The notes under the pieces are model-generated. The model did not search any database. It was not told the DNA's origin and worked only from the letters and a program-made list of their open reading frames with translations. The position numbers were made by a program, and so were the translations under genes. Shown here in pieces: positions 21,756 to 56,865 of a stretch of DNA of 64,000 nucleotides; positions within the stretch are counted from its first letter, which is position 1; each line of letters starts with the position of its first letter. The stretch is taken from positions 3,840,001 through 3,904,000 of the forward strand of contig OY843592.1 of assembly GCA_963692865.2 (NCBI GenBank), read 5' to 3'. This DNA comes from a bacterium (GTDB lineage Bacteria > UBA8248).

Positions 21756-21774
21756 CCGGCCGGAGAAAGAACCC

Positions 21775-23217: not shown

Positions 23218-23218
23218 G

Positions 23219-24807: not shown

Positions 24808-24856
24808 GAGGTTTCAGGTATACTGAAACACGTTTTCTCTTACCAAACCGGGATGG

Positions 24857-25513: not shown

Positions 25514-26271
25514 AAAACGTCGAAATCATCCCCGTCGCCGGCTTGCCGGAAATCAAGGAGGGCGACGCGCTTGCGCCCCTGATCCTGAATGCGCTCGAAA
25601 CGGGCGGCGTGAGAATCCGGGATCGGGACGTGCTCGTTCTCGCGCAAAAGATCGTCAGCAAGGCCGAAGGCAGGGTGTTGGATCTGAAAAGCGTCGAGCC
25701 GTCCCAGGAAGCCCTCGAAATCGCGGACCGCGACGGGCGCGACCCCAGGCTCGTCGAGGCGGTGCTCAGAGAGTCGAACGAGATCGTCGTCGCTTCCGAG
25801 CGCGCGCTCATCGCGGAGCACCGCTCGGGCGCGGTATGCGCCCATGCGGGGATAGACCGCTCGAACTTAAGAGGCAGCGAAGATGAGGCGCTGCTTCTGC
25901 CCCGCGACGCCGACCTCTCCGCCCGGAAACTCCATGAAGAGATCCAAAGCGCGGCGAACGCCTTCGTTCCCGTCCTCATCGCCGACACCCAGGGGCGCGC
26001 TTTTCGCCGGGGCGTCGTCGGCGTGGCGATAGGGTGCGCGGGGCTGGAGCCCCTGGTGGACTTGAGAGGAGAGAAAGACCGCAGCGGCCGCACGCTCGAA
26101 ATCACCATACTCGCGCACGCGGATGAAATCGCCGCGGCGGCCAGCCTCGTGATGGGACAGGACAAGCAGGGCGTTCCCGCCGTCCTGATTCGCGGACTCA
26201 AGTATCATGAGGGAGACCGACCCGCGCAGACGCTCTACCGCACGAAAGAAGAAGACCTGTTTCGCCCATGA
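25510..26271 (+). CDS. cofE: F420-0:gamma-glutamyl ligase
   Basis: GLPEIKEGD, QKIVSKAEGR, HAGIDRSN, LLPRDAD, IADTQGRAFRRG, ADEIAAAASLVMG. Confidence 0.95.
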   Translation: MKNVEIIPVAGLPEIKEGDALAPLILNALETGGVRIRDRDVLVLAQKIVSKAEGRVLDLKSVEPSQEALEIADRDGRDPRLVEAVLRESNEIVVASERALIAEHRSGAVCAHAGIDRSNLRGSEDEALLLPRDADLSARKLHEEIQSAANAFVPVLIADTQGRAFRRGVVGVAIGCAGLEPLVDLRGEKDRSGRTLEITILAHADEIAAAASLVMGQDKQGVPAVLIRGLKYHEGDRPAQTLYRTKEEDLFRP

Positions 26272-28195: not shown

Positions 28196-28405
28196 CTAGC
28201 TCTTGAATCGTCTGAGATTCGTATTTTTCTTCCCGGGCTCCCTCCGGCTCATCCGCTCCAGGACAAGGCCGGCTTCGAGCGCTTGCTGGTTGAAGCGAAA
28301 CTCCTCCCAGGTGCAACGGGCCAGCAGGTGCGGGGGAAGGCCGTAGGTCTTCGCCTGAAAATGAATGACCGCCAGCAGTTCCTTGCTATACGCGCGGAAA
28401 CGCAT
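28196..28405 (-). CDS. Small ORF downstream of tail chaperone, likely the frameshift extension (gpT-like part)
   Basis: Overlaps the 3' end of the chaperone in the +1 frame; FRAYSKELLAVIHFQAKTYGLPPHLL..FRFNQ resembles phage chaperone extension domains (inference from position). Confidence 0.55.
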   Translation of the reverse strand: MRFRAYSKELLAVIHFQAKTYGLPPHLLARCTWEEFRFNQQALEAGLVLERMSRREPGKKNTNLRRFKS

Positions 28406-28778
28406 CGCCTTCCGGCGCGCCCTCCTCTGGGGCCGGAGCCGCCGCATCGTTCTGAAGCGTCATGACGGCGGTGAATATGGCGTCGGCGTCCGCCGGGGCG
28501 AGTTCATGGATGCTCAGTTCATCGGGCAGGCAACGCCCCGGCTCCTTATCCGTCATCGAGCCGCGCTCGGGAACGAAGCAGCGCCTCAGGATGCAGTGCG
28601 CCCACTCCCCCGTAAGCGCGTATCGCTCCTCCTCTCCCGCAGCGCCGTCAGCGGCGCCCGCGAAGAGCTTCGGGTACGCCGCCATGTCCAGGAGATTCGG
28701 CGCGCGCACGAAGCCCTTGAGCCCCGAGGGCAGGGTGATGGGCCTGCGCCCATGGTTTCTGTATTCCGAAATTTCCAC
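28386..28778 (-). CDS. Putative phage tail assembly chaperone
   Basis: 130 aa directly after tail tube, ITLPSG motif, SD AAAGGGAGG; assigned mainly by synteny. Confidence 0.6.
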   Translation of the reverse strand: MEISEYRNHGRRPITLPSGLKGFVRAPNLLDMAAYPKLFAGAADGAAGEEERYALTGEWAHCILRRCFVPERGSMTDKEPGRCLPDELSIHELAPADADAIFTAVMTLQNDAAAPAPEEGAPEGDAFPRV

Positions 28779-28850
28779 GATTCCTCCCTTTCGTTTTCGC
28801 TGAATCGAGACTTGACCAAGGTGAAGAAGCAGCCGCCTTCCAGACGGAGA

Positions 28851-29990
28851 CTAGGCGAAGACGATGGAAATCTCGTCGTCCCCCGCATTGCGCGCCAGGC
28901 GGAAAGGCGCATCGTAGGCCAGCAGGCCGTCCCGGTCCGAAAAGCCCATATCCGCGTACTGGCATTTGGGCGCGGTGATGGCGCAGACGTTCCCGGCCCT
29001 GTGGCCGACCTGCACGCTCAGGGGGAGATGCGCGCCGCTTTCCCAATCGGCGAACACGTCCTCGGTGGCCTTGAGCACGGCCTCGGGGTCGAAAGAGCCC
29101 GACGGCGCGCGGCCCGTCACCACGGCGTTCACGTGTCCGCCCGATGCGTTGGCGCTCTGGCGCAGGACAACCTCGTTGTTCATGGCGAAGCGGATGTTCG
29201 CCACGTCGAAATGGAAGCCTCCGAACGAAAAGCCGCTCATGAGGATGGGTTCGGGCGTCTGCCCGTCGTAGGACGCGCCGCCCGGGAGCGGCGCATCGCT
29301 CACCTCGAAATCGGCCGCCTCGAACTCCCAATCCACCGTGGGCACGCCGTCCAGGGGACAGTTGATGGAAAAACTCCCCATGCAGCCCAGATACATGACT
29401 TGCAAGCCGTCGATGAACGCCGTGATGCAGATTCTCGTATAGCTCGATTTGTCGGAGGCGGGCGCATAGGCGACGGAAGCGCCATCGACGACCGTCTCCT
29501 TCATCGCGCACGCCCTGAACAACAGGCCGTAATCGGGCGCGACGCCCGCGATGCCTGAGCCGCGCAACTCGGTGGCAAAGGAAATCTGCGCGGAGCGTTT
29601 TCCGGGAATCGACGGGAAAGGCGAGAGGCTCGCATCCTTCACCGCGCGCTCCAGTTGCTCCACGCCGATCTCGTGGGCGAAGTTGCCCGCCCGGAACAGT
29701 TCCGAGGCCGCCGCCGGCCGATCCAGCAAGTAGGCCGTGCCCGCGGCGGGGGCTGTGTCCCAGGCGGCGTCCACCGTGAGCGTGTCCGTGGCCGCGTCGA
29801 AATCGCTCACCTTTCTCCTTTGGCCAATGCCGACCCCCCGGATCGTGCGCAGCACCGAGCCGTTCCAGAAATCATCATCCTCCGCGAGCGCGGCGTCCAC
29901 CAGGGTGGAGGCGTCGGCGGAATCCGCCGCCAGCTCCTTCTCTTCCGTCGCGCCGATAGTCTGTCGATCCATCAATATCGTATCGCCCAT
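28851..29990 (-). CDS. Phage major tail tube protein (non-contractile type)
   Basis: SAQISFATELRGSG.AG.APDYG.LFRAC, YLGCMGSFSI, TGRAPSGSFDPE, NAGDDEISIVF; N-terminal beta-rich insertion; SD AAGGAGG. Confidence 0.75.
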   Translation of the reverse strand: MGDTILMDRQTIGATEEKELAADSADASTLVDAALAEDDDFWNGSVLRTIRGVGIGQRRKVSDFDAATDTLTVDAAWDTAPAAGTAYLLDRPAAASELFRAGNFAHEIGVEQLERAVKDASLSPFPSIPGKRSAQISFATELRGSGIAGVAPDYGLLFRACAMKETVVDGASVAYAPASDKSSYTRICITAFIDGLQVMYLGCMGSFSINCPLDGVPTVDWEFEAADFEVSDAPLPGGASYDGQTPEPILMSGFSFGGFHFDVANIRFAMNNEVVLRQSANASGGHVNAVVTGRAPSGSFDPEAVLKATEDVFADWESGAHLPLSVQVGHRAGNVCAITAPKCQYADMGFSDRDGLLAYDAPFRLARNAGDDEISIVFA

Positions 29991-30060
29991 CCCGTGTTCT
30001 CCTCCTTCCGTTTTGAGGCGAAGGCGCATCCTTCGCCGGTTTTCATGGCCTTTTCTTCGT

Positions 30061-30594
30061 TCAATCCCGCCGAATCCGCTCTACCGCCCGAATCCGTATT
30101 TCGGCGTAATGGCAAAGCACGTTCCCGAACGTCCTCAGTTCAATCAGGTCCACCTGCGGGGGCTGAAGGCGCTCCAGGGAGGGGACGCGCGGCGCTCCCG
30201 ATTCATCGAGAAGGCGAAGCGCCCCCTCGTCCCTGAAGCGGTCGCAAATCTCCTCGATCAGATCCTGGAAGGCCAACTCGCTGCCCGCCGCGTCCTCTGC
30301 GCTCATGATGCCGAAGAGCAGGAACGTGTGGGTTCGCCTGCCGAGGCCCGACGGGAGGAAGCCGCCTGCCGCGTTCGAGCCGATGGATGCGGCCTCCTCC
30401 CCGGCTCTCTCGCGCGTCAGCACCCAGCCCCTGATTTGAGCGACGCCGCCGCCCGCCTCCCACCGGAAAAGGTCCAGATATTTCCCCAGGTCGGCCGACC
30501 AGCGCTGATGGCCGTGCACCCGGCCCGCCTCCGGTACGCTCGATATTTCCGCCAAAACGGCGTCGCCGATTTCCCTGTATCGTGATTTAGCCAC
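30061..30594 (-). CDS. Putative tail terminator/completion protein
   Basis: AGRVHG.QRW, IRGWVLTR, SELAFQDLIEEICDRFR, FGNVLCHYAEI; position between neck and tube genes. Confidence 0.6.
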   Translation of the reverse strand: MAKSRYREIGDAVLAEISSVPEAGRVHGHQRWSADLGKYLDLFRWEAGGGVAQIRGWVLTRERAGEEAASIGSNAAGGFLPSGLGRRTHTFLLFGIMSAEDAAGSELAFQDLIEEICDRFRDEGALRLLDESGAPRVPSLERLQPPQVDLIELRTFGNVLCHYAEIRIRAVERIRRD

Positions 30595-31096
30595 CGATTT
30601 TCCTCGCAATTTCATCCATCAGTTGACCAATGCGCCCCTCGATCCAGCCCTGGTTTTCCTCGAAGGCGCGCGTGAACATGCGGCGTTCCCGTATCCCCCG
30701 CCGGGCGATAGCGCGGGCGACGAGGAAGGCGACGCTCTCGAAATCGTCACCCCGCGACTCCAGGTTCCGGACCACCCAGAGGTGCAGGGGCGAACCCTCC
30801 CTCCAAGGCGGCATTGCGCTTCCCGGACGGCGTCCGAATTCCACGGGGTCTGCATAAGGAGCGCGCGAGGCGACAACACCGCGCAACTCGCCCGGAATAT
30901 CACCTTCGATTTCGACGAAAATGCTCCCTCGCAGATTTCCACTTGCGCCGATGGACGTTCGCGTCATTACCTCGCGCCTGAGCATTCCGGTGATCTCGGC
31001 CATCGCTTCGCGCGCGAGACGGAAAACCTCCTCTTCTTCCCGCGCGTTTGGAGGCGTTTCCGCCAGGGCTTCCAGCGTTGCGCTCCGATGATTCAC
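30587..31096 (-). CDS. HK97 gp10-like tail/neck component
   Basis: GASGNLRGSI, YADPVEFGRRPG, VARAIARRG...MFTRAF pattern typical of HK97-gp10-like proteins. Confidence 0.7.
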   Translation of the reverse strand: MNHRSATLEALAETPPNAREEEEVFRLAREAMAEITGMLRREVMTRTSIGASGNLRGSIFVEIEGDIPGELRGVVASRAPYADPVEFGRRPGSAMPPWREGSPLHLWVVRNLESRGDDFESVAFLVARAIARRGIRERRMFTRAFEENQGWIEGRIGQLMDEIARKIGG

Positions 31097-31114
31097 GTCG
31101 TCTCTCCTCTCCGC

Positions 31115-31825
31115 CTAGCGATCCCCGGACGCGCCGTGCGTGAAGTATTCGCCGCGCCCCAGCGAGAGAAGCGCGTCCCAATCGAGAGACGCGCCGGCCG
31201 GACCCGCCACTTCGCCCTCCTTGCGGCCGAGATGGTTCTGGTATTTGCGCTCGAGCTCCCGGCCCAGGCGCGTGTATTCCGAAGACTTGCTCTGGTAGTC
31301 CACCGAATCCGCCGCGAGGGTCGGGTTCGAGGACTGGGCGAAGCGGCGGGCCAGCAGGTGGCAGCCCTCAGCGGCGGCCAGCCACGCTACGGCGGTCAGG
31401 TCGTTTTCGGGTACGCTCGTGCGCGCGTCGTCGGCCGTGTGCTTGATCGCGTAAAACAGGCGGAGCGTGTGGCCCATTTGAGGGGAGAAGTAGATGAGCC
31501 TGAACCTCGCCGCCGGGGTTCCTTTCGCATAGATGATCCAGGCGCTCCGCCGCAGGTAGGAGGGCTTTCTCTCCCCCTGGGGATATTCCACCTCCCGGAT
31601 GAAGGAGAGGGAATCGTCCCAGTCCTCCGGCAGGGGAAAATCGAAAGTTTCGCTGTCGCCCGCGTAATCGGCGAACGAGACGAGCGGCCTGTCCTTGCTG
31701 TAGCGCGTGAGCGCCGCGTTCACCAGATCGGCGTAGTCCGCCTCCTCGACCCCGAATTCCCGTGGCAGCGCGCCCGCCTTCAACAAAACCTTCACTTCCT
31801 TGATGATCGTCTGCCTGCCGGCCAT
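31115..31825 (-). CDS. Putative head-tail adaptor protein
   Basis: Position after capsid and decoration genes; ALTRYSKDRP, VEYPQG, ADSVDYQSKS; SD GGAGGAGG. Confidence 0.6.
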   Translation of the reverse strand: MAGRQTIIKEVKVLLKAGALPREFGVEEADYADLVNAALTRYSKDRPLVSFADYAGDSETFDFPLPEDWDDSLSFIREVEYPQGERKPSYLRRSAWIIYAKGTPAARFRLIYFSPQMGHTLRLFYAIKHTADDARTSVPENDLTAVAWLAAAEGCHLLARRFAQSSNPTLAADSVDYQSKSSEYTRLGRELERKYQNHLGRKEGEVAGPAGASLDWDALLSLGRGEYFTHGASGDR

Positions 31826-31856
31826 TTTTTCTCCTCCTCCTCGTTCTCTCGCGGCT

Positions 31857-32198
31857 TCAAGTCTTGAGCGTGAGCCTGGCCTCGAACGTAAACGAAGGCT
31901 CCTGCCCGCCGACGGACCACGCGAGCCGGAGCCAGGGGCCGACGTTCGCGAGCTTGACGAGGGTCTTGCCGGCCGAGGTGATTTGGGCAGGCCTGGTATG
32001 GACGAAAACCGCCTCATCGTCCGCAGGACCGGTCTGCACCTCGAAATCGAGCGCCGGCGAGGCGCCCGATACCGCCGTCACGTCGATGAACAAGAGCGCC
32101 TCGGTGAAGCGGCTCACCTCGAACGCCGTGCTGCCTCCCGCGGCGACGCGGGCCGCGGGTGGAGCGAGGGTGATGGTGTGGGTTCGCCTGTCGGACAT
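31857..32198 (-). CDS. Small beta-sandwich virion protein (capsid decoration-like)
   Basis: 113 aa, alternating beta pattern (IDVTAVSG.SP.LDFEVQT, WLRLAWSVGG.PSFTF), directly after capsid, SD GGAGGAG. Confidence 0.5.
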   Translation of the reverse strand: MSDRRTHTITLAPPAARVAAGGSTAFEVSRFTEALLFIDVTAVSGASPALDFEVQTGPADDEAVFVHTRPAQITSAGKTLVKLANVGPWLRLAWSVGGQEPSFTFEARLTLKT

Positions 32199-32232
32199 GG
32201 CTTCTCCTCCGAATGCGTATGCGCCGCGCTAA

Positions 32233-34314
32233 CTAGGCGGGCGCGCCGCGATAGAAGCCGCGGAAGTCCAGGACGGCGCCGCCGTAGACGTGCCTGATCT
32301 TGTAGCGAATCTTGTCCGCGCTGAATCCGCTGCCGGCGGAGGGGTTGTCCTCGATGAACAGTTCGGGCTCGCGCATGTCGTCCATGAAGCCGATCTCGAT
32401 TGTGTCCATGAGGCCCGGGTCGGCGATCATGTACCAATCGTTCGAGTCGGTGAGTTCGGGCGCCCACAAGGGCTCCACCCCCAGGCGGTTGATGAAGCTA
32501 GGCTGGTTGGAGTTTCCGCCCGCGACGACCTTGACGGGCGACTGGGTGACTTCGAACGCCTCTTCGAGCAGTTCGGTTGGGTGGACGAGGTATTTGGGCC
32601 GGGCCTGCGCCGCCACCTCGACGCCGTCTTCCCCATAAAACGTCTGCTGGCCCATCGCCTTGATGGCGGCGACGGCGTTGTCGTAGGTCAGCGCGTTCGC
32701 GGAGGCGTTGTGGTGGTCGTCGTGGAACAGCGTTTTACCGTCGTAGATGGCGGTGTTGGAGGCCAGAAAATCGAACACGAAGCCGTTCAGGGTGCGCTGG
32801 GCCGCGCGGGCGAGGCGCTGGGGGATCATGCGAATCGCGCCCATGTCGTCGTTCTGGATCATCTCCCAGGTGAGGTCTTCCACCCCACCGCGCTTGGAGA
32901 CGGCGTAGGTCACTTCCTCATCCGTCGGGGAGGTGAGCGCCGGATAGGCGGCCTGCTCGGCGACCGTTTGCAGATCGCCGTAGCCGCCGACGCGCACACG
33001 GCGGTTCGTGCGGAAATCCTTGACGGGCGTCACGGAGGAGACGATTTTCTTCCACTGGTGGAAGCGTTCGTCCCTGAAATCGCGAAGCATAGCGCGGCGG
33101 ATCGAATCCCCGAACGCCTCGCCCCACGTACTCGTCTGCAAGGAAGCGGAGAGGCGGCGCACCCCGTTCCAGTCCTCGGCGGCGCGGTGGTAGTGGAACG
33201 TCTCGGCGAAGAACTGGCGAGGTGCGAGGCGGTGGCCCGTGAAATCCTGAAACGCCTCGCTCATGAAGCGGTAGGGCCGCTCCCCGTCTACCGCCTCTTC
33301 ACGCGAACTCCAAAGCCCGTCGAGGGCCGCCTTCTTGCGGTCCGCCTCGTCCCGCATCACCTCCCCGCGCGCGCCGAAACCGCGCAGCGCGCCGCTCGCC
33401 GTGAGTTTTTCCAGCGTGGCCGCCTCGACCCGAATCGCCTCTTCGATCTCCTCCTCCGTGAAGCTCCCCTCGGCGAACTGGGCGCGCATTTTCTCCTGTA
33501 CGGCTTCGGGAAGTGCTGAGACCGCGAGTTTTTGCGCGAGCACGCTGCGCGCCGCGCCGCTCGGGGTCTTGGGCTTATCCGCCACGACCTCTTCTCCTTT
33601 TTTCTTCAGGTCCAGTTCAAGGTCCGCGTCTTCACAGGCCGCGAGGAACTGTTGCGGCGTCCAGGCATCGCCGAGTTTCTCGGCCGATTCGGGCGCCACG
33701 CTTTTGAGTTTCTTTCCGAGTTTTTCGAACATCTTCACCTCCGGTGTAGTGGAATGATTGGCGGCGAGACCCAGAATCCCGCCCCCGAGCTTGCCCTTGT
33801 GCACGACGTCGACGGAGTGAACCGCCAGAATTTTTTCGAAATGCAAAACGAGCCCACCGGCCTCCTCGCGGAACTCCGCCTGCGCGAGCACGTCGAAGGA
33901 AAAGCCGAAAGGCTCATCGAGACCCCGGGACAGCGCATCGTGCGCCAGCGCCTGAAACCACGACGCGGACCGCGAAACCGCAAACGTGCTCAAAAGCCCC
34001 TCCCCGCCCATGCGGACCTCGCGGTGCCAGCCGACCAGGTTCCTGATGTCGGGGCCGCTCGAGGCGGTGTGGTTCGCGAACGCCTGCGCGCCCTCGAACA
34101 GTGGAGCGGCCTCGCGCAGAACGTCGCCGGGCAGGAACCATTCCCCGTCCCTCGAGTAGCCGGCCCGCGCGATCAGCACCTCGAAATCCCAGGCCTCTTC
34201 CGGCGGCTGCGATTTATCCGCAACCGAGCGGATGATGTGGCCATGCAGCCTCAAAGTGTGAGAATCCTTCTGCGCCTCGGCGCGAGTCCATAAGCGGTTC
34301 ATCCATCTTTTCAA
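32233..34314 (-). CDS. Fused prohead protease/scaffold plus major capsid protein (Mu gpT-like, HK97 fold)
   Basis: N-terminal protease-like region (LFEGAQAFANH, RNLVGW, GFSFD, SVDVV), helical scaffold, then capsid (VKDFR, LTWEMIQNDDMGAI..IPQRL, YDGKTLFH.DH, PKYLVHP, IEIGF, RYKIRHVYGGAVLDFRG); SD AAAGGAG. Confidence 0.85.
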   Translation of the reverse strand: MKRWMNRLWTRAEAQKDSHTLRLHGHIIRSVADKSQPPEEAWDFEVLIARAGYSRDGEWFLPGDVLREAAPLFEGAQAFANHTASSGPDIRNLVGWHREVRMGGEGLLSTFAVSRSASWFQALAHDALSRGLDEPFGFSFDVLAQAEFREEAGGLVLHFEKILAVHSVDVVHKGKLGGGILGLAANHSTTPEVKMFEKLGKKLKSVAPESAEKLGDAWTPQQFLAACEDADLELDLKKKGEEVVADKPKTPSGAARSVLAQKLAVSALPEAVQEKMRAQFAEGSFTEEEIEEAIRVEAATLEKLTASGALRGFGARGEVMRDEADRKKAALDGLWSSREEAVDGERPYRFMSEAFQDFTGHRLAPRQFFAETFHYHRAAEDWNGVRRLSASLQTSTWGEAFGDSIRRAMLRDFRDERFHQWKKIVSSVTPVKDFRTNRRVRVGGYGDLQTVAEQAAYPALTSPTDEEVTYAVSKRGGVEDLTWEMIQNDDMGAIRMIPQRLARAAQRTLNGFVFDFLASNTAIYDGKTLFHDDHHNASANALTYDNAVAAIKAMGQQTFYGEDGVEVAAQARPKYLVHPTELLEEAFEVTQSPVKVVAGGNSNQPSFINRLGVEPLWAPELTDSNDWYMIADPGLMDTIEIGFMDDMREPELFIEDNPSAGSGFSADKIRYKIRHVYGGAVLDFRGFYRGAPA

Positions 34315-41394: not shown

Positions 41395-41474
41395 GAAGTA
41401 TTCATGGCCGGGCTAATGGGCAGCGGGCGGAGTGGATCGCTAAAGAATTTTGACGGCTTTACTTCAGAGTGGAT

Positions 41475-42068
41475 TCAACCACGAAAAGAATCGACTCCTT
41501 TATAATTGAGTACTGCGTTTGATTTGAGGCTCTTGATCAAAATGGCCTCTACTTGTTTACGCAATGTATCGTCCTCAATCTCAATATAAGAAGCCTGTTC
41601 GACTATCGGAGATTTGAACCAGAACTTTTCGAAATGTTGTTTCAAACGATTCTTTATGTTCTTGGATTGTCCGATGTAAATCAGGCGATCGCTTATATCG
41701 TAAAGCAGATAAACACCGGAAGTGGTAGGCCACTCTTCTTCATCATGCGGCGAAAAATCTTGGATTGACCCCAAGCCTTCTATGCGGGAGGCTTCGGCAG
41801 TATCTTTTGAATTCTCAACATCGCCTCGCGTCCATCGGTAAGTGCGATCTCCCCTTACCATCGCCCTCCGCTTTCGGAAGCCAAGGTTGCGGAGGCACTC
41901 GGCAATCCTCATCTGCGTGGGCCTGTCCAGCTTGTCCTCGTCAATGCGCAGAACATCCCGAGCGATTTCAGCAAGTGTCATATCTCCGCCATCATACGCC
42001 GAAAAGAACTCCTCGATGAAGTTTTCCCACTCGTCTATTGAGTGTTGCTCCTCGTATCGCAGCCTCAT
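41475..42068 (-). CDS. GIY-YIG nuclease domain protein with N-terminal helical DNA-binding-like domain
   Basis: GVYLLY..LIYIGQSKNIKNRLKQH..EAILI..LN; lower-GC segment; SD GAGGGAGG before ATG 42068. Confidence 0.75.
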   Translation of the reverse strand: MRLRYEEQHSIDEWENFIEEFFSAYDGGDMTLAEIARDVLRIDEDKLDRPTQMRIAECLRNLGFRKRRAMVRGDRTYRWTRGDVENSKDTAEASRIEGLGSIQDFSPHDEEEWPTTSGVYLLYDISDRLIYIGQSKNIKNRLKQHFEKFWFKSPIVEQASYIEIEDDTLRKQVEAILIKSLKSNAVLNYKGVDSFRG

Positions 42069-42373
42069 TCCCTCCCTCAATACTATAAATCGTCGGGGCA
42101 GACACACCAGACGCTTGAACCTAACTTGTTCATGGTAAGGCGTCAAGAATTTCCCAGTCGGGTTTCGGAGCATGATTTCTTCGGAAATCCTATGCCTTTA
42201 CTTCCCGAAAACCACTCTGGAACCCTCCCTTCCCCTCGAACCACAGCGGTTAGAATTGCTGGGAATTATCGCGACAGGCGGATTCGAACTCCCCGGAGGT
42301 TCATTCACAAGAGGTTGGACATGAGCGAACCGACTTGCCGCCGATTAGTTAAAGGAACACAGGAAATTACACG

Positions 42374-42568
42374 CTATTTCTCGGTATCTTCCAACCCTTT
42401 GTTGTAGCCGAGAGCGTAGATACAAAAAGGACATTTGCCAGCAGCCATCACCCTGCCCATGGGCGCATCAGGTAGCTGTTCTATCTTTTCCAGGAGAACT
42501 CTTGTTTTCTCTGGTATTTCTCGATGAGATGGTACGCTGTGTTTCGTGCAATTATTTCCAGGCCCCAT
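42374..42568 (-). CDS. Small Cys/His-containing hypothetical protein
   Basis: C..H..CPFC.YALGY pattern in low-GC island. Confidence 0.35.
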   Translation of the reverse strand: MGPGNNCTKHSVPSHREIPEKTRVLLEKIEQLPDAPMGRVMAAGKCPFCIYALGYNKGLEDTEK

Positions 42569-42658
42569 TAAATTTCTCTTTTCATAGGGATTTAACGCCA
42601 AGTATTCGTCGGGTTTGTTTTTCCTGCGCCAATCCCGACCTGCCCGACAGGACGGTTT

Positions 42659-43432
42659 TCATGAACGCATAATCGCGACTTCCGGCAATTCCGCATCCGG
42701 TTCCAACGGCAGAATTGCACGCGCTTGCGTGTAATCTCCCTCCTGCACAATTGGTGTAATTTTGCTGACTTGCCGCACCGCTATAGGGTGGCCATTGGTC
42801 GGGTCGCGACTCACCAATCCTTCCACGACAGCGTGTTTTCCCCAAACTTCTCTCATGAGATCTTCCTGACCAGATTGCAAATAACACGAAACCGGACGGT
42901 CATTCAGAGCGTCATATAGAGTGAATCGCAACACGTTTCGCTTTGTTAATGTCTGAACTTCTCCCTCCACGGCGCCAAAGGCCACAGATATTACATTTCC
43001 CGGCAGACTTAAAACGTTGTCCGCCGCTCTCGGCTTACCAGTTGGAGGATTATGCAAGATTACCGTTTCCTCTTGTGTCTCAAATCGGACTCGTTTGACG
43101 CCATTTCCAACCAAGCGTCCAAGTTTCATCGCTGGACCGGAAATTTTTCGTCCACGATCAATCCGAACATTTTCTCTAAGCGCTCTGCCAACGTCATTGT
43201 ACCCTCTTACAACCCGTTCGACCCTTTCCGATTGAAGGCTATATCCTTTAATGGTCGCTAATGCGCTCCCGGGCTGAAGGTCTTCGATCTTCCACTCAAT
43301 ACCGCCTCCCTCCTCAACCGTTAACGCACTGACGAGGCTATTCAGCGATTTTATCGCGGTGGCGAACGTCTCAAGAGTGACATCGCCTTCCAGCATCAGC
43401 GTAATCGTGTCAGGAGTCATTACTTCCCCCAT
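42659..43432 (-). CDS. Hypothetical protein in low-GC island
   Basis: 257-aa ORF with natural composition; no motif recognised with certainty. Confidence 0.6.
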   Translation of the reverse strand: MGEVMTPDTITLMLEGDVTLETFATAIKSLNSLVSALTVEEGGGIEWKIEDLQPGSALATIKGYSLQSERVERVVRGYNDVGRALRENVRIDRGRKISGPAMKLGRLVGNGVKRVRFETQEETVILHNPPTGKPRAADNVLSLPGNVISVAFGAVEGEVQTLTKRNVLRFTLYDALNDRPVSCYLQSGQEDLMREVWGKHAVVEGLVSRDPTNGHPIAVRQVSKITPIVQEGDYTQARAILPLEPDAELPEVAIMRS

Positions 43433-43698
43433 ATGGGGTTCCTAAAGGATGCGGTATTGATGGATATCCTAATCAGGATATCAATATGTCTAAGCCTATT
43501 GTCTCAAAATTTGCGTGTCAATCAATTCCCAATTCAGACCAAAACACCCCCAAAATCTCGTATTGATCCGAGAAGCGGATGCAGTTACGGCGCGAAAAAC
43601 TCTTTCTTCCCTCAGGCAGCGCCTTCGGTTAGAATGGCCGGAAATGATCGAAACGAGTGAATTCGACCTCCCCGAAAAACCTCACAATGGAGGATCAC

Positions 43699-44253
43699 AT
43701 GAGCGAAATGACGAAGGAGAAGGAAAAGATTCTCGTCTATGAACCCGTGGCGGAGGCGCCGGGCGCGGGCGCCGTCATGGCCGCGCGGCCCGAGAGCCTG
43801 AGCGGCAAGAGCGTGGGCCTCATCAACAACACCAAGGATTTCACGGATGAGATTTTCGACGTCATGGGCGCCGCGCTCGAAGAACAGTTCCCCGGCGTGC
43901 GCGTCGTGCGCTACAGGAAGGAATCCGTGAGCGGCGCATCGCCCGCCTTGATGGAGCAGGTGGAAGGAGAGTGCGACGCCGTCGTTTCCGCCCTCGGCGA
44001 CTGAGGCTCGTGCACGTCGTGGAGTATCCACGACAGCGTCGCCCTGGAGAAGAGAGGGCTTCCCACGGTCACGGTCGTCACCGACGCATTCGAGGCCTAC
44101 GCCAAACAGCTCACCAGGCTGCACAAGATGAGCGAACTTCCCCTCGTTACCCTGCCCCATCCCATCGCGGGCAGAAAGCGCGAGGAGGTGGACGAGATGT
44201 CGGCGAAGGCGAGCGCGCATCTGGCGTCCGCCCTCACGCAGGCGAGCGCTTGA
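43699..44253 (+). CDS. UGSC-motif selenoprotein candidate (in-frame UGA at 44002)
   Basis: LSGKSVGLINNTK..DAVVSALGD-[TGA]-GSCTSWSIHD..EKRGLPTV..PHPIAG; frame stays open to TGA 44251; SECIS-like hairpin 44016-44034. Confidence 0.9.
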
Positions 44254-45379: not shown

Positions 45380-45871
45380 TTACTCATAAGGTAGCGTGTG
45401 CGTCTGGATAACCTCGATATCGAAGTATCGCTCCATCTGCTTTATGCCTTGATCGTCCGAGTAAATCGTACTTTCATTTTGAGCGAGAGCGACGGCGACG
45501 ATTTGCCTGTCGTATTTGAGTTGTGCTTTCGTAAACGGAGATTGGGATTCGAACACGCGGTTCTCGTGAATTTTCTGTGTGACATGGACAAGCTTTTTCA
45601 CGGCATCAATGTCAAAACCTGCAATATGAAAGTGGCGGGATTGCTGGAGTATGGAAATCCACTCTTCTATGTTTCCTCTTGCAATAACGAGCACTTCCGC
45701 CAGTGCGGGAGTGGGTATGATGATTGGCTGGGATTTTGATTCCATATCGCGGATGAGATATTCGATCCGCTGACTCACATTGGCTAGGGGCTCACCGGTG
45801 GCGGGATCACTAGGTGGCTTGGCGTTCGGCTGCACCAAAAACATGAGAGTCGTTGCATCGAATACCGGCAT
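45380..45871 (-). CDS. PIN-domain (VapC-like) protein
   Basis: VFDAT, IIIPTPALAEVL, KYDRQIVAVA, IYSDD acidic PIN residues; low GC. Confidence 0.75.
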   Translation of the reverse strand: MPVFDATTLMFLVQPNAKPPSDPATGEPLANVSQRIEYLIRDMESKSQPIIIPTPALAEVLVIARGNIEEWISILQQSRHFHIAGFDIDAVKKLVHVTQKIHENRVFESQSPFTKAQLKYDRQIVAVALAQNESTIYSDDQGIKQMERYFDIEVIQTHTLPYE

Positions 45872-46089
45872 TACTTTCTAATCTCGACGCCTCGTTCCCT
45901 CATGAGTTCGGCATACGGGTCATCGACGCCATCGAACAACCCCAAACCTCTCATTTTGCGAACAACCGAACCGATCGACTCTTCGGCGGGTTCACGCCCA
46001 CTCGTTATATGCTCATCTTCTTGAAAATGGTTGTTGTTCCCAACGCCAAATTCAAGATTCGTTTTCTCTTCCTGATTTTTGTCGTCCAT
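45871..46089 (-). CDS. Small acidic protein, putative antitoxin
   Basis: 72 aa, stop overlaps PIN start, SD GGGGAG. Confidence 0.5.
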   Translation of the reverse strand: MDDKNQEEKTNLEFGVGNNNHFQEDEHITSGREPAEESIGSVVRKMRGLGLFDGVDDPYAELMRERGVEIRK

Positions 46090-46201: not shown

Positions 46202-47575
46202 CTACCCATCCACGCTCATGCCGAACTGGCCCGCGAGGTGGGTGATGAGCCTGCCGGCGGCGTCATCGCTCATCCAGCCGCGTGAGGTGGCCGTCTCGAG
46301 CGCGGCGCTCACGCGCAGGAGCGCCTGGGACATCTTCTCGGTGTCGCGCACGGAGATATCCGGCAGAACGGGCGAGACGCCCGAGCGCAGCGCTTCTTCA
46401 CTCAGCGCGCCCGCGCGGCGGGCTTCCTCCAACTGCTTGTCGGCCATGGCCTGCAGGATATGGCGCACGGTGCGCTGGCGGCGCGTCATCTTCTTGAGCG
46501 TGGGCTGATCCATCGACTCGGCCGAGGCGCGGTTCACGTCCTCTCCCTGGGCGAACCAGTGGGAGGGAACGCCCACGCCGCCGAGCAGCAGGCCGCGCAT
46601 CATCTTGGCGATCCCCTGCGCGCCGGACTCGCCGCCTTTCAAGTCGGGCGAGACGGCTTGCCACTCCTCTTTCTCGTTGTGAACGCGCACGCTGGAGGGC
46701 TTGGGCGCGACGCCGTTCTCGGCGAGCCACTCGGCTATCTTCTCGGGGCCCGCGCCCTTGAGCGTTACGTCGTAGATGAAGCTGTTCTGCAGGCGCGCGC
46801 GCTCCACGGCGTCGAATATGAAGCGCTCGTAGGTGTCTATCCAGTCGATGGCGGCGAGCAGATCGGAAGCCCCGCGCGCGGCGTCGCTCGCCTTGTTTAT
46901 CTGGAACAGGAACGCCTCCCCGTCTGTGAAGCGCGCCCGCTCCTTCTGCGCGGAGGCGCTCAGGTAGCCGCGCGGGTCGCCGCCCAGCGCCGTCCGGATG
47001 CGCTTGCCCTTTCGCGCCGCCCCGCCCGGACCGTCTGCGCGCAGGACGACCCCTACGGCCAGGGCGCAGTTGTCCGGGTCCATCACCACCTCCTCTATCA
47101 GGCGCGGGCTGACGTAGCCGAGCCGGACGCGCCCCTCGAAGCGCGAGACGGCGACGGGCAGGAGGAGTTCCCCGAAGATGCCGAGTTCGGAGACCAGCCG
47201 CTCGAAGCGGATGTCCATCTGGTTCACGGGGTCGGCCCAGAACGCCTTCACGGCGCGCAGGGCGCGCTCATCCTCCCCGTGCCAGCTCACCCCCTCGCCC
47301 ACGACGTGGTCCGTAACGATCTCGATCAGCCGCTGGCCCATCAGGTTCGTGAGCCAAAGCTCATACGCCAGCGCCTGCATGCGCGCGTGGGTGTAGGGCG
47401 AAACCCCGCCGCGCCCCTCGCCCAGGGGCCGCCATATCCGCTCGTCCGGATCAATCGCCGCGCTCATTCGCCCCGAGCGCCGCGCGGCCGCCTTCACTCT
47501 CCCGGCATCTCCCTTGTTCCCGGGTCCCGACTTCCGCCCGGGAGCCTTCACCCTCTTTACACTCTCCATCCTCAT
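46202..47575 (-). CDS. Phage portal protein
   Basis: RLIEIVTDHVVGEG, FWADPVN, ELGIFGE, RGASDL, VRVHNEKEEW, GVPSHWF..DVNRASA, RRQ; directly after terminase. Confidence 0.82.
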   Translation of the reverse strand: MRMESVKRVKAPGRKSGPGNKGDAGRVKAAARRSGRMSAAIDPDERIWRPLGEGRGGVSPYTHARMQALAYELWLTNLMGQRLIEIVTDHVVGEGVSWHGEDERALRAVKAFWADPVNQMDIRFERLVSELGIFGELLLPVAVSRFEGRVRLGYVSPRLIEEVVMDPDNCALAVGVVLRADGPGGAARKGKRIRTALGGDPRGYLSASAQKERARFTDGEAFLFQINKASDAARGASDLLAAIDWIDTYERFIFDAVERARLQNSFIYDVTLKGAGPEKIAEWLAENGVAPKPSSVRVHNEKEEWQAVSPDLKGGESGAQGIAKMMRGLLLGGVGVPSHWFAQGEDVNRASAESMDQPTLKKMTRRQRTVRHILQAMADKQLEEARRAGALSEEALRSGVSPVLPDISVRDTEKMSQALLRVSAALETATSRGWMSDDAAGRLITHLAGQFGMSVDG

Positions 47576-48219
47576 CTCCTCTCGATCATCCGCTGGTGAT
47601 AAGTCCGCGGCGTCACCGTGCCCCCGGCGAAGGGGGCCAGCACGCCCTCGCTCCGCGCCAGGGACTCGGCCAGCCGCGCATAGGCGCAGGCGAAGCCGAA
47701 GTGGTTCTCGTTCCGCTCATACGCCAGCGCCGTCTCCCCGGAGGAGCGGACGCGCGGCTTTTTTCTCAAATTCATCAGGTGACGCTCCACCTCGTTCAGG
47801 AGCGCCTCCTCCCCGGTGTCCTTTGGACTCGGCAGCAGGACACGCCCGGCGCCCTCGTGGAACTCCTCCACCAGGTGATCGAGCAAATCCTCGCGGTTCA
47901 TGCGCACGTGGCGGCGCTCGACCCCCAGAAACGAGACATCCTTGATCTGCATCTCGCCCTCGGTGTGCCGCCAGATGAAGCCGCCGTCCGGATTCAAGTC
48001 GTACACCGCGCGCGCCTCCCGGGTGTGGGGTCCGCCGTCTATGACGAACGCCTCCACGCCCAGGCCCGAGAACACGGCGCGGCACCGCGCGATGAGCCGC
48101 TCGACGGGCAGGGATTCGAAATATATCCACCGGGCGGGCCGGCCCTCCCCGTGTTCGCGCACTGCAAGCGCGCAGGCGTCGCCCGTGTCGATTCCGCAGA
48201 AACGATGCGCCGCGCTCAC
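47572..48219 (-). CDS. Terminase large subunit, C-terminal RNase H-like nuclease domain as a separate gene
   Basis: GTG start overlapping upstream TGA (GTGA) with SD GGAGG 7 nt upstream; FCGIDTG, VIDGGP, NHFGFACAY. Confidence 0.78.
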   Translation of the reverse strand: MSAAHRFCGIDTGDACALAVREHGEGRPARWIYFESLPVERLIARCRAVFSGLGVEAFVIDGGPHTREARAVYDLNPDGGFIWRHTEGEMQIKDVSFLGVERRHVRMNREDLLDHLVEEFHEGAGRVLLPSPKDTGEEALLNEVERHLMNLRKKPRVRSSGETALAYERNENHFGFACAYARLAESLARSEGVLAPFAGGTVTPRTYHQRMIERR

Positions 48220-49274
48220 GCGGGCGCCTCCGCCAGGCGATAGGGCGCGGCGTCGCGCAGCTTCCCGAGCAACTCGCGGGAGATCGGCTGGGCGTCGCCC
48301 GCATCGGGGATGGCGAGCGCCGAGCAGCGAAAGCGCGCCCTCTCGCTCGGGAGGCGGGCGGCGGCCCATTTCGCCTTGATGCGGTCGAGGCGCACCGCGC
48401 CGACCGCGAGTTGGGAGAGGCGGTAGCTCCTGTGCCGCCGATTCGCCCGCGCGGCCTCCCACCGCCCCGCGCCTCTCTTGAGCGCGCCGCCACAGTCCGG
48501 GCAAGCGAGGCCGCCCCCGCGCAGGATGCCTGGCCAGTTCTCCTCCAGGACGCTCCCGGCGCGGCACGCCGGGCACCTCACGCGCCAGCGCCTCCGGTCT
48601 CCCGCCTCGTACATGGCGTGAATGCCCGCGCCCGGGGTTCTGCCGACGGCCAGGTTGAGCGTCAGGGCGAGCGGCGAGGCGTCGATGCGGTCGTTCGACC
48701 ACTTGAGGTTCTCCGGCGGCAGGTCGTCCACCTCGTCGCGAATCAGCACGTCGAGCGGAATCGATATGGCGTTGCCGATGTCCCTGAGACCCAGGATGTA
48801 GAGAAAACGCGAACCCCCGCTTCCGGGGAATTCCTTCAAGCCCTTGGGCGACGCGCCCTTGTATTCCCCATCGCGCATGAGCGAGGCGATGCGCCCGCCC
48901 CTGAGCGCGGGGCGCACGCGCGTCTGGTCGAAGCGGTCGGCGAAATCCTGATCGGGCAGAAAATAGCCCACGTTCAGGCGGTGGACGATGACGCAGTAAA
49001 GCGCAAAACCGATGGCGAACGTCGTCATGCCCACCTGCGCGCCCTTGAGGACGCTGACGGTCCGATCGGGCGCGCGATCCTTCAGCACCCCGTCGAGCGC
49101 GGCGACAATCTCCAAAAGCGCCTCTCTGCCCTCGAAGGTGAACGCGCCGGTGTCGGTCGACATCCCGCTCGTCAGAAACCGGGCCAGCCCGCGCGCCTCG
49201 CCCGAAAAGCGCGGGGCTCCGCCGGTCGTAAGGGCCATGCCGGGGGCCCGAAGGATTTTTCGGGACTTGCGCAA
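48216..49274 (-). CDS. Terminase large subunit, N-terminal ATPase domain (GpA-like)
   Basis: Walker A-like KGAQVGMTT, YFLP, Walker B DVLIRDEVD, DRRRW..CPAC..CPDC Zn motif; TTG start with SD GGAGGAG. Confidence 0.82.
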   Translation of the reverse strand: MRKSRKILRAPGMALTTGGAPRFSGEARGLARFLTSGMSTDTGAFTFEGREALLEIVAALDGVLKDRAPDRTVSVLKGAQVGMTTFAIGFALYCVIVHRLNVGYFLPDQDFADRFDQTRVRPALRGGRIASLMRDGEYKGASPKGLKEFPGSGGSRFLYILGLRDIGNAISIPLDVLIRDEVDDLPPENLKWSNDRIDASPLALTLNLAVGRTPGAGIHAMYEAGDRRRWRVRCPACRAGSVLEENWPGILRGGGLACPDCGGALKRGAGRWEAARANRRHRSYRLSQLAVGAVRLDRIKAKWAAARLPSERARFRCSALAIPDAGDAQPISRELLGKLRDAAPYRLAEAPA

Positions 49275-49324
49275 TGCCGGAACTCCTCCAGTCCAAGGAT
49301 GCCGCGCGCATCCTCACGGGGAGG

Positions 49325-49439: not shown

Positions 49440-49650
49440 AAGGCGATCCTCCCGCATCAATCGGGCTTTCACCTGTAGGGGCCGCATATCATGCGGCCCG
49501 TTGCGGAGGCGAAAATCAGGGTCGCATGATATGTTGGACATATATGTCTGACCTACAGAATCATCACGTCGCCGACCGGGCAGCGGAAGAACCACTCCCC
49601 GGTCGGTGAAATACGACGAATCACGAAATCAGGATTTTTTCACGACCCCG
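49440..49650. repeat. Copy of the palindromic repeat element
   Basis: GTAGGGGCCGCATATCATGCGGCCC..GGACATATATGTC unit and TTTTTTCACGACCCC end. Confidence 0.75.
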
Positions 49651-49799
49651 ACCGGCAGACTGATGAGCGCATCCTTGCGCTCAGGCGCGCATCCGGGGTC
49701 TTTGAACCCGAAGCGCCCGGCGCGCTCTCGCCGCGCGGCGTTGATCGCGCCTCCGACTTCCTGTAAATCCGTCTTTGAAACAATGCCGAATGAAGGCAT
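49629..49799 (-). pseudogene. yajQ: Truncated, degenerate yajQ N-terminal fragment
   Basis: MPSFGIVSKTDLQEVGGAINAARRERAGRFGFKD resembles the YajQ N-terminus (MPSFDIVSxxDxxEVxNA..RFDFK); ends in a repeat terminus. Confidence 0.7.
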
Positions 49800-50202
49800 G
49801 GTGTTCGCAAAGCTCCTCTGGAAACCGGGCGCACGCTACACACCCGGCGCTTCTGGTGGTATAGTAGGCGGCAGCTCATCCAACGCCCAGGATTGTTCTG
49901 GAGACGATTGGGGGGTTTCCCCCGCGAGGAATCCCTATTTTCCTTGACTGAACGGCTGGTTCCGACGCCTTCCGGGGCGCGAAACCATCTCAAGGAGATT
50001 GGTGTATGCGTCGAATCACGACGAAAATCAAGTCCGAAGACGTCGAGAGAGCACGGGCCGGACGCGGTGGTGACGAGGAGATTCTCATCCACGCCACCCG
50101 GTGCGGCATCCAAACCGGCGGGCGGGCGAAGCCGCCGTCTAAAACCTGAACCAAAACCTTTTTTTCGATTCATTACCTGACGCATTTAGGGAGGTTGAAA
50201 AA

Positions 50203-51559: not shown

Positions 51560-51750
51560 GGGGTTGTTGAAAAACTATCCCTCTCGCATCAACCACGTTT
51601 TACCCGTATGTCGGACATATATGTCCGACATATCATGCGACCCGGCCTTTTCGCCCTTCCGGTGGCGGGCCGCATGATATGCGGCCCCTACAAAAACCGC
51701 TCCCCCCCGGTCGCGTAAAACACTATTCATCAAGGCTTTTTCAACAACCC
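51560..51750. repeat. Complete miniature element bounded by GGGTTGTTGAAAAA / TTTTTCAACAACCC
   Basis: Terminal inverted repeats at about 51561 and 51737 enclose the palindromic unit; abuts permease stop codon. Confidence 0.85.
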
Positions 51751-55392: not shown

Positions 55393-56865
55393 CTTCTCTA
55401 ATCGGGTAGGGCAAGTCAAGTTCCTCTCCCCTGGTTCTGTCAGACCTGTTCCGCCTTTGGCTGCAGATGACGCTCCATGGGGGTCTCGCTTCTCTTCGTG
55501 ATCGACTCCCGAGCCGGGGGCCGTCAACAGGATGGGATCGGAGAACGAAGTGGAACAATCTTTCCTGCGCCCTCGCATCGTCACCGACGCAGCGGGGCTA
55601 GGCCGACAGCGTACTCACTTCGTCCCTCGTCCCCACGGGAGCATCCCCCGCCGAGGCGGAAGCTACAGGGTTTGTCTGTGGTCCTCCTTCTTCAGTGTCT
55701 CGACCTCAGGCAGCCGAAGCATCCGCGCCGTCGCGCTTCCAGCGGAACTCACTGCCATCCATCCACATGCGGTGCATGATGACGCCGAGCCGGCGGGCGA
55801 GCGCAACCTTCGCGCGCGACTTGCCGCGACGCTTCGCCACACCCATCGCCCAGGCTTTCAGCCATGACCACCGCGTCGTGCGCCCGAGCAAGACGTTGGC
55901 GGCTTCGTAGAGCGCCGCGCGCATCATCGCGTCGCCGCATTTGGAGATGCTTCCCGTGCGGTCGACCTCTCCGGATTGCCATTTGCGAGGCACAAGCCCG
56001 AAGTGCGCGCCCACCGAGCGCGAGCGCGCAAAACGCGATGGCACGTCGACGCTCGCCCGGAAGGTGAGCGCCGTCACCGGACCCACGCCGGGAACCGTCA
56101 TCAGGCGCCGGCAGACCGGATCGGCTCGCGCCGCCTCCAGCATCATCCTGTGCAGCCGGACGTATTCCGCCAGCAGCGCAGAGCGAGCCCGCAGCATCGG
56201 CGCCACCAGGCGCGCCAACTCCGGGCGCTCCGCGACCAGACACCCTACACGCGCCTCCAAACCGCGACGGGTGACCTTGCCCATCTTCAGCCCGAAGTTG
56301 CGCAGCGTGCCCCGGATGTGGGCCTCGGCGTCGCACAACTGCTTCAGCATGAACCTGCGGTTGGCGAGGAGCATGCGTTTTTCCTGGCTCGACACCGTCT
56401 TCACGTGCACCGGGCGAATCAGGTTCGCGCGAACCAACTGGGCGATGCCGCGCGCGTCGTCGCGGTCGCTCTTGTTCACCGTCGCCGAGAGCACCGCCTT
56501 CAGTTGCCGCGTCTCGGCGCAAACCACCGGGAACCCGGCCTCGGCCAGACCGTCATGGAGCCACTGTGACAGCGGCCCCGCCTCCAGGCAGATGCGCGTT
56601 ACGCCGAAGGCCAGTCCGGTGAAGAACGCCACGAGGGCCGCGGGTTCGCTCGCGACCTTCGCCTCCCGGACGATCCCGCCCTCCGCGTCCACCACGCACA
56701 CACTCGTCCACTCCAACGACACGTCGAGTCCTGCAAAGTAGTTCATGACTGCTCCTCCTGCGGGCGCGTAGAGACCGGACCATCCCGGCCTCGCCTCGAA
56801 TCATAAGGCAGAGGAACATCCGCCACACGCGGTAGTTCGCAGACCAACCCGATTACCCCATCTTC
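55393..56865 (-). mobile_element. IS110-family (IS1111-type) insertion sequence
   Basis: Sub-terminal inverted repeats TAATCGGGT(A/T)GG at 55399-55410 and 56844-56855, GAAG core at both ends, long 3' non-coding region. Confidence 0.85.
55706..56746 (-). CDS. IS110-family transposase/recombinase
   Basis: AGLDVS, CLEAG, KSDRDDA (DEDD RuvC domain), VPGVGP, GLVP..QSG (catalytic Ser), ISKCG, ALARRL. Confidence 0.95.
   Translation of the reverse strand: MNYFAGLDVSLEWTSVCVVDAEGGIVREAKVASEPAALVAFFTGLAFGVTRICLEAGPLSQWLHDGLAEAGFPVVCAETRQLKAVLSATVNKSDRDDARGIAQLVRANLIRPVHVKTVSSQEKRMLLANRRFMLKQLCDAEAHIRGTLRNFGLKMGKVTRRGLEARVGCLVAERPELARLVAPMLRARSALLAEYVRLHRMMLEAARADPVCRRLMTVPGVGPVTALTFRASVDVPSRFARSRSVGAHFGLVPRKWQSGEVDRTGSISKCGDAMMRAALYEAANVLLGRTTRWSWLKAWAMGVAKRRGKSRAKVALARRLGVIMHRMWMDGSEFRWKRDGADASAA

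Follow-up and report, generated by a model that had tools for sequence, protein, structure and literature searches.

A probable two-chain large terminase encoded by overlapping ATPase and nuclease genes in a host-retained, phage-derived module

Does a large terminase (TerL) that reads as two adjacent genes, one for the ATPase and one for the nuclease, represent a terminase of two chains, or a one-chain enzyme whose gene has been broken, recoded or put to another use? The question is raised by a 64,000-nucleotide stretch of bacterial DNA (contig OY843592.1, positions 3,840,001 to 3,904,000 of the forward strand, assembly GCA_963692865.2; GTDB lineage UBA8248), referred to here as the window, in which an ATPase gene, a nuclease gene and a portal gene follow one another. 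In the relevant part of one account (PMC7824862) the large terminase is a motor of one chain and two domains, and an earlier note on this DNA, made from its letters alone, had proposed a natural split with the layout of translational coupling. The reading that we favour, and to which we give a probability of about three in four, is that the locus encodes a non-covalent two-chain terminase, translationally coupled, within a vertically inherited phage-derived module that is domesticated and possibly related in kind to gene transfer agents (GTAs).

The three genes are all encoded on the minus strand and each overlaps the next. The first, terL-A (48216..49274), encodes the 352-amino-acid (aa) ATPase subunit, recognised by Pfam and PHROG matches and by its AlphaFold2 (AF2) fold; it starts at TTG, with an in-frame ATG 12 codons further in, and stops at TGA (48218..48216). 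Its product contains KGAQVGMTT (residues 77-85) and DVLIRDEVD (175-183), of which KGAQVGMTT and VLIRDE are what we take to be Walker A-like and Walker B-like motifs, followed by CPAC (234-237) and CPDC (258-261), which form a four-cysteine zinc ribbon, and a C-terminal tail from about residue 309 to 352. The second, terL-N (47572..48219), encodes the 215-aa nuclease subunit, with GIDTG (residues 9-13), VIDGG (59-63) and ENH (171-173), and is recognised by its PHROG match and an RNase-H-like AF2 fold. It starts at GTG (48219..48217), such that the ATPase TGA and the nuclease start share the four bases GTGA (48216..48219), and a Shine-Dalgarno-like GGAGG (48227..48231) lies within the ATPase coding sequence 7 nt 5' of this start; there is no homopolymer run in the junction sequence. 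The open reading frames (ORFs), motifs, stop codon, overlap and GGAGG that the earlier note had described were all found again, on the minus strand. The nuclease stop in turn overlaps the first ATG of the portal gene as ATGA (47572..47575). This third gene (46202..47575) encodes a 457-aa portal protein (phrog_10963, E 3.7e-46) that is 74-93% identical in relatives, in several of which the nuclease match stops where the portal match starts. The ORF finder also reports a 581-aa ORF in the nuclease frame (47572..49317), which we regard as merely the open frame of GC-rich DNA; homology starts at the GTG. A scan for promoter and terminator consensus sequences gave nothing interpretable for the operon.

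Both halves resemble the corresponding parts of known large terminases. The ATPase matches Pfam GpA_ATPase (PF05876; E 6.6e-16, 59.1 bits against a cut-off of 25.6), no Pfam family is matched by the nuclease ORF, and the two align one after the other with PHROG 675 (terminase large subunit, 576 positions), the ATPase at positions 26-343 (E 7.8e-48) and the nuclease at positions 361-548 (E 1.5e-11). The ATPase model (pLDDT 83.9) has its best fold match in the PDB to the terminase of P74-26 (7ks4, E 7e-8), followed by those of HK97, D6E and T4 gp17, with the phi28 gp11 motor among the weaker structural matches. The nuclease model (pLDDT 90.5, pTM 0.86) matches G20c best (5m1f, E 6e-6, TM-score 0.52/0.59), then P74-26, SPP1, T4 gp17 and herpesvirus terminases, and RuvC is also among its matches. 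Profile searches of both halves against solved structures returned zinc-finger and de-novo-protein noise and no sequence relatives in the PDB. The features expected of a TerL, an ATPase domain with Walker-type motifs and an RNase-H-like nuclease with conserved residues, are therefore predicted here from motifs and models, on two polypeptides rather than one.

Catalytic-type residues are retained in both halves. In the ATPase, an alignment of 20 sequences shows no variation at Q80, G82, D180, E181 or the four cysteines, K77 is conserved in at least 90%, and these conserved residues are the ones common to fused terminases. In the nuclease, all 42 aligned sequences, 18 fused ones among them, have D11, which closes strand 1, and N172-H173, which opens the last helix; at least 90% of the 42 also have D61, which closes strand 4. 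The ENH at the last nuclease position, which the earlier note had seen as a departure that might change activity, is present, but not as an oddity or defect of the split form: fused members read ANH, VNH, PNH or ENH at this motif, and by this alignment 'NH' is a trait of the whole terminase family, with no sign of decay.

The junction between the two genes is conserved among related genomes. A genome scan yielded 34 loci (L numbers below), of which 16 close loci together with the window form a set of 17. An NTGA overlap is present at the ATPase/nuclease junction in all 17 (ATGA in 13, GTGA in four) and the exact GGAGG lies 7 nt 5' of the nuclease start in 14; these 17 concordant assemblies are independent, coming from different assemblers and projects. 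Deeper relatives, with an ATPase 62-66% identical, have GTGA (L019, L021 and L028) or TTGA (L020). In L018 a 67-nt spacer separates the ATPase gene from a nuclease gene that starts with ATG, and in L017 the nuclease is 243 nt from the ATPase, the ATPase TGA and another in-frame stop both precede its ATG, and the two terminase genes are in the same frame. The junction cannot be read in L022 because of a run of N, and L016 and L023 end short of it. The comparison of orthologues that the earlier note had proposed thus bears out its idea of a natural split with a coupling layout rather than a random frameshift, in that the split falls at one point in orthologues both near and far, the deeper relatives also having two genes, and both halves are under purifying selection. 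We note that the 243-nt spacer of L017 is filled with GC-rich repeats resembling the REP-like units of the window.

A broader relationship is seen in protein databases. A search for ATPase homologues that admitted proteins of 193-616 aa, so that fused forms could appear, returned 72 proteins. All 51 of those at 53-94% identity are ATPase-only (271-408 aa), 18 are fused full-length proteins (552-611 aa), all at 34-46% identity to the ATPase, and the other three are short fragments. Nuclease homologues that stand alone fall into 50 clusters (58-99% identity, 131-304 aa); sources that name them call them 'hypothetical', and they have no Pfam domain, except for an unrelated one in the 304-aa match. 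At the genome level, ATPase and nuclease are contiguous in one frame in all eight loci with a 34-45% identical ATPase (L025-L027, L029-L031 and L034 among them). Six of the fused loci were annotated, and in each TerL matches phrog_675 from end to end; the portal gene comes next in all but one of the six, genes for head protease and capsid follow downstream, and the small terminase phrog_426 is directly upstream in three of the five loci with a scanned upstream ORF. The fused relatives that were checked sit in ordinary phage morphogenesis modules.

A quick maximum-likelihood tree of the ATPase region (68 rows, four fragments shorter than 300 aa being left out) places 50 split rows and 18 fused rows on the two sides of one branch, with an SH-aLRT support of 100 and a length of 0.61. 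The simplest reading of this tree is that the split arose once, anciently, in the ancestor of a clade of Nitrospinota-type bacteria, and that it has been kept since. Since the linker of fused proteins (for example ...SGARGFLPRYGGMDTGD) aligns with ...AEAPA-stop / MSAAHRFCGIDTGD of the split pair, we propose that a one-base frame change in the inter-domain linker most likely created the overlapping stop and start. In a library of 1.84 billion proteins, 137 of the 150 best family representatives are at least 450 aa long, a search that used a full-length terminase profile (564 positions) and so reports family lengths, not nuclease-only proteins. Ten short library matches outside the split clade, available as sequences without genomic context, are possible fragments or other splits. 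One of the short forms, P0264, is a 364-aa ATPase-only terminase of another sub-lineage that resembles the fused group, and its end coincides with that of the split forms, and four others (P0270, P0378, P0283 and P0350) begin mid-protein; all of these may reflect a further, independent split or be pieces of genes.

If the product is two chains, they would have to be made together and to find each other, and the gene layout and structure prediction are consistent with both. A four-nucleotide overlap with a Shine-Dalgarno sequence at 7 nt is the classic layout of termination-reinitiation coupling. ATPase and nuclease would be made as separate polypeptides from one operon of ATPase, nuclease and portal genes, and, because of the NTGA overlap and the upstream Shine-Dalgarno sequence, ribosomes ending the ATPase gene would probably go straight on to initiate the nuclease gene, with the two products in roughly equal amounts. 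Co-folding of the two chains, which the earlier note had suggested, gave a score of 0.83 (0.84, 0.83 and 0.83 in separate runs) against 0.00 for the best of three controls, the mark for this score being reached by 116 of 157 solved complexes and by two of 215 mismatched pairs. Contacts agree between runs at 81% or more and the partner pLDDT is at least 82. The confident interface joins ATPase residues 309-352 with nuclease residues 20-35, 48-53 and 114-153, and the prediction supports binding through the C-terminal tail of the ATPase, a tail whose pLDDT, when the ATPase is modelled alone, falls from 70 to 45 over residues 321-352. That the genes divide right at the domain boundary, as the earlier note had put it, is correct insofar as strand 1 of the nuclease fold comes immediately after the break, but the ATPase chain retains about 25-45 residues which, in the co-fold, are packed against the nuclease. 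A plausible scenario is that the linker, which remains on the ATPase chain because of the position of the break, acts as a strap that holds the nuclease: in the model the tail (about residues 327-352) packs on the nuclease domain, the chains would re-associate, and the two-domain architecture of ordinary terminases would be rebuilt without a covalent link.

The terminase identity of these genes, as given in the earlier note, holds, but their setting is neither a phage nor an ordinary prophage: they form a three-gene module at one chromosomal site. On one side of the trio is an ammonium transporter gene (amt), with a DUF520 gene, presumably of YajQ type, in between, and downstream are a gene for a 366-aa protein, a UGSC-family gene, two genes for luciferase-like monooxygenases, and dehydrogenase and deaminase genes. 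This synteny holds in every locus with enough flanking sequence, down to those in which amt is 69-72% identical, and the differences between genomes at the site are small variable insertions, namely a PIN-like gene pair and repeats. Selection was estimated as pairwise NG86 medians of the ratio of nonsynonymous to synonymous substitution rates (dN/dS), which are 0.22 for the ATPase (17 sequences), 0.20 for the nuclease (16 sequences) and 0.16 for the portal (18 sequences), and for flanking genes 0.21 (amt), 0.12 (the 366-aa neighbour), 0.23 (luciferase-like gene), 0.19 (dehydrogenase) and 0.14 (deaminase), values that are approximate in GC-rich genomes such as these. The synonymous rate, dS, is 0.43-0.52 for the trio and 0.38-0.50 for the flanking genes. 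By both measures the trio, under purifying selection, resembles its cellular neighbours.

The portal gene is present downstream of the terminase, and no small terminase (TerS) gene was detected upstream of it in the window. The 928-nt spacer upstream of the ATPase gene was considered as a place for one and was found to hold a DUF520 remnant and repeat insertions instead; a 181-aa ORF in this spacer has no PHROG match. The DUF520 gene is intact between amt and the ATPase gene in L002 (9384-9887), L004, L024 and L012-L014, and in the window it is a 68-codon remnant (about 49630-49830, minus strand) cut by a repeat insertion. REP-like palindromic units, GGGCCGCATATCATGCGGCCC and TATGTCGGACATATATGTC, form an inverted pair around the amt gene (49474-49556 and 51606-51692) and recur in tandem at about 27100-27700, downstream of the tail gene cluster described below. 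Directly downstream of the portal gene is a pair of genes of lower GC content (45380-46089, minus strand) for a 163-aa PIN-like protein and a 72-aa product; the former matches Pfam PIN with E 0.033, below the cut-off, and phrog_21691 with E 4e-18. This pair occurs only in some relatives (L002, L003, L011, L012 and L014), is missing for example in L007 and L010, and looks like an insertion of toxin-antitoxin type.

What might such a terminase serve? Gene transfer agents are described, in the passages concerned, as phage-derived head, tail and packaging genes that are kept by the host and vertically inherited, may lie at several loci and do not propagate themselves (PMC9632790, PMC10883770, PMC6821227). 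A head and tail gene cluster (28196..34314, minus strand), identified by Pfam and PHROG matches, lies 12 kb from the trio, with ordinary cellular genes in between. It includes a 693-aa fusion of protease/scaffold and major capsid protein (32233-34314, minus strand; Phage_capsid_4, 1.2e-46; PHROGs 29592, 4523 and 133), an HK97-gp10/Neck1-like protein (30587-31096, minus strand; HK97-gp10_like, 2.5e-4) and a tail tube protein (28851-30029, minus strand; Phage_tube_2, 3.5e-13); PHROGs 5 and 290 are also matched in the cluster, and its other ORFs, on the same strand, are of 113, 300, 184, 130 and 83 aa. L019 (68% identity), L013 and L032 have the capsid gene at the equivalent position. Capsid homologues at 50-100% identity make up one clade, found in genomes of the same kind, the next matches being at 39% or less, and capsid and terminase identities run in parallel on the same contigs (57 against 55/60%, 79 against 78%, 77 against 79%, and 67 against 66%).

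Within the 64-kb window there are thus a capsid-protease fusion, a neck protein, a tail tube, a portal and a terminase, of which the terminase trio is under purifying selection, and the phage genes are fixed in the host and vertically inherited; no integrase was found in the window, and neither an integrase nor a replication gene adjoins the phage-derived genes. The most likely role of the trio and the capsid and tail cluster would be to package DNA for a GTA-like particle retained by the host. More tentatively, and with the odds on the whole against so specific a proposal, the split terminase, portal, capsid and tail genes may constitute an unrecognised, vertically inherited GTA-like element of Nitrospinota-type bacteria, sponge-associated and groundwater lineages included, in which TerL would have become a heterodimer at or near domestication, and both detachment of the nuclease and the apparent lack of an adjacent TerS would have contributed to the cutting and packaging of host DNA without a phage-specific site. 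The earlier suggestion that an uncoupled nuclease alters headful control or favours non-specific packaging may hold, and the question of non-specific packaging is a reasonable one because of the domesticated context and because no recognisable small terminase adjoins.

Three other explanations of the locus have to be weighed against a two-chain terminase. An indel introduced by sequencing or assembly, or a frameshift that recently made a pseudogene of a one-chain gene, would account for two frames that are one base apart in GC-rich DNA that leaves the nuclease frame open far upstream, and frame changes are seen elsewhere in these genes in L001, L012, L021 and L028. However, the same junction in 17 of 17 independent assemblies, the spacers of 67 and 243 nt in two relatives, the ATPase-only form of 51 of 51 close homologues, dN/dS values of about 0.2 for both halves and a junction free of homopolymers leave this explanation next to no probability. 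By sequence comparison we take error and recent pseudogene formation alike to be excluded, because junctions, homologue lengths and the phylogeny of fused and split forms agree. It is also very improbable that one chain is produced by programmed -1 ribosomal frameshifting or other recoding, with the two ORFs as a regulatory device. The nuclease frame is -1 relative to that of the ATPase and is open upstream of the junction in the window, and phage morphogenesis genes are known to use programmed frameshifts, but a -1 slippery heptamer (X XXY YYZ) occurs in none of the 17 close genomes in the last 90 nt of the ATPase gene, and the only element found by Rfam over the window is one tRNA. Moreover, the overlap coincides exactly with the nuclease start codon, an ATG in 13 of 17, and the Shine-Dalgarno sequence ahead of it is conserved; in L017 the two genes share a frame and are 243 nt apart with in-frame stops between, and in L018 they are 67 nt apart.

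The third explanation is that the genes have been exapted from terminase to another host function, such as phage defence, DNA repair or resolvase-like cutting, for which the chains need not bind. They are fixed in the host, under purifying selection and without an adjoining small terminase, the nuclease model has RuvC resolvases among its best structural matches, and no complete tail or lysis set is seen in the window. We nonetheless consider it unlikely, in that every intact locus has the ATPase, nuclease and portal genes side by side and overlapping, the genes for the capsid-protease fusion, neck and tail tube co-occur and co-diverge with them, the catalytic-type residues and zinc ribbon common to fused phage terminases are retained, and the co-fold predicts binding. 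Several observations nevertheless weigh against the two-chain, coupled and domesticated terminase that we prefer. The module is dispensable in some lineages: L032 and L033 retain only an ATPase remnant of about 100 codons, L028 has a frame-shifted ATPase and nuclease and no portal match, L021 has lost a nuclease segment and has a frame-shifted portal, and there are frame changes in the nuclease of L001 and the portal of L012. The approximate nature of the dN/dS values counts on the same side. The co-fold score may mirror the likeness to solved one-chain terminases, and the alignments of both chains held fused homologues as a possible source of inter-domain signal, such that the co-fold speaks for halves that remain compatible rather than for actual binding; coupling and heterodimer formation are predictions from genes and models. 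Searches of the 64-kb window revealed neither a small terminase nor any tape measure, baseplate, fibre or lysis gene, and a complete particle is accordingly hypothetical.

Among the various other features of the window, the UGSC-family gene downstream of the trio (43657-44253, plus strand) has an in-frame TGA at 44002-44004 that, read as selenocysteine, gives D-U-G-S-C. With this reading the Pfam UGSC match extends from a truncated one (E 6.7e-15) to positions 2-171 of 172 (E 7.4e-47), and the product is likely to be a selenoprotein. Next to it, at 41400-43650, is an insertion of about 2.2 kb with a low GC content (0.40-0.52) that contains a GIY-YIG-domain ORF (41475-42173, minus strand) together with 49 nt that duplicate the sequence in front of the UGSC gene; the corresponding interval in relatives measures only about 150 nt. 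An IS110-family transposase gene (55706-56746, minus strand) lies between genes for an ABC-transporter ATPase and an M24 peptidase and is a genome-specific insertion, because these flanking genes adjoin in L002, L003, L004 and L007. A gene of glycoside-hydrolase-13 type is present as two overlapping ORFs (4361-5278 and 5215-6276, minus strand), with CBM_48 and the alpha-amylase catalytic part followed by Alpha-amylase_C, an arrangement that may reflect a frameshift or be a genuine pair of genes. A cluster of coenzyme F420 biosynthesis type (19537-26271, plus strand) contains two radical-SAM CofG/H-like genes, an FrhB/FdhB-like gene, a nitroreductase-family gene, and genes for CofD, CofC and an F420 ligase.

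No terminase split at the protein level was found in the full-text literature, a body that covered few subscription journals, and no report of a GTA or domesticated phage element of Nitrospinota was found within the same scope. Some actinobacteriophage annotations label terminases separately as 'ATPase domain' and 'nuclease domain'. How the terminase nuclease stays inactive during translocation and is then switched on at the end of packaging is a matter of mechanistic debate, and a two-chain terminase maintained by selection across a deep clade would mean that the covalent link is dispensable. It would also provide a ready-made system in which motor and nuclease can be reconstituted apart to ask what the tether contributes and, if particles are made, a new lineage of GTA-like elements in ecologically important bacteria. 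Annotation pipelines can be expected to call these terminases truncated, because the nuclease half is 'hypothetical' and has no Pfam domain.

The closest known systems are the GpA-type (lambda-like) terminases of PHROG 675. They share with the split pair the ATPase family, the collinear order of ATPase, zinc ribbon, linker and nuclease, and a portal gene directly downstream, and the fused relatives occur in modules of TerS, TerL, portal, protease and capsid genes; the split terminase differs in being two polypeptides, in having no adjacent small terminase that could be found, and in being fixed in a chromosome rather than part of a mobile phage. Against 50,697 phage records the nuclease has no tblastn match, and the ATPase has 10 matches, all below 60% identity (24.7-31.6%) and all to one-chain or unannotated genes. 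A motor ATPase without a covalently attached nuclease is already known in the phi29-type gp16. The phi29-like phages are not known to have a terminase nuclease, their genome being protein-primed and of unit length, whereas here the gene of a conserved nuclease adjoins that of the ATPase, and docking of its product on the ATPase tail is predicted.

Terminase genes that occupy several ORFs are known in another form, through group I introns, inteins and split inteins, in the parts of four reports that deal with them (PMC12880540, PMC13729910, PMC7156551, PMC2677866), and the cases given there include the Jug phages, Twort, cyanophage Mic1 and 'fractured genes'. The terL gene of Twort is spread over three coding sequences according to the section on it in PMC13729910, and RNA or protein splicing is reported or proposed, in the corresponding parts of PMC12880540, PMC7156551 and PMC2677866, to restore one terL chain. 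The window resembles these in having a terminase of several ORFs but has no intervening element at the junction, and since neither an intron nor an intein could fit into a 4-nt overlap, two separate chains would be the expected product. Another likeness is to the GTAs of Alphaproteobacteria (RcGTA type) and the Caulobacter GTA, with which the module shares conserved synteny, a host-like dS, a dN/dS of about 0.2 and an arrangement in two loci. It differs from them in belonging to an unrelated lineage, that of Nitrospinota-type metagenome-assembled genomes, where it is known from its genes, in using another terminase family, and in having that terminase as two chains.

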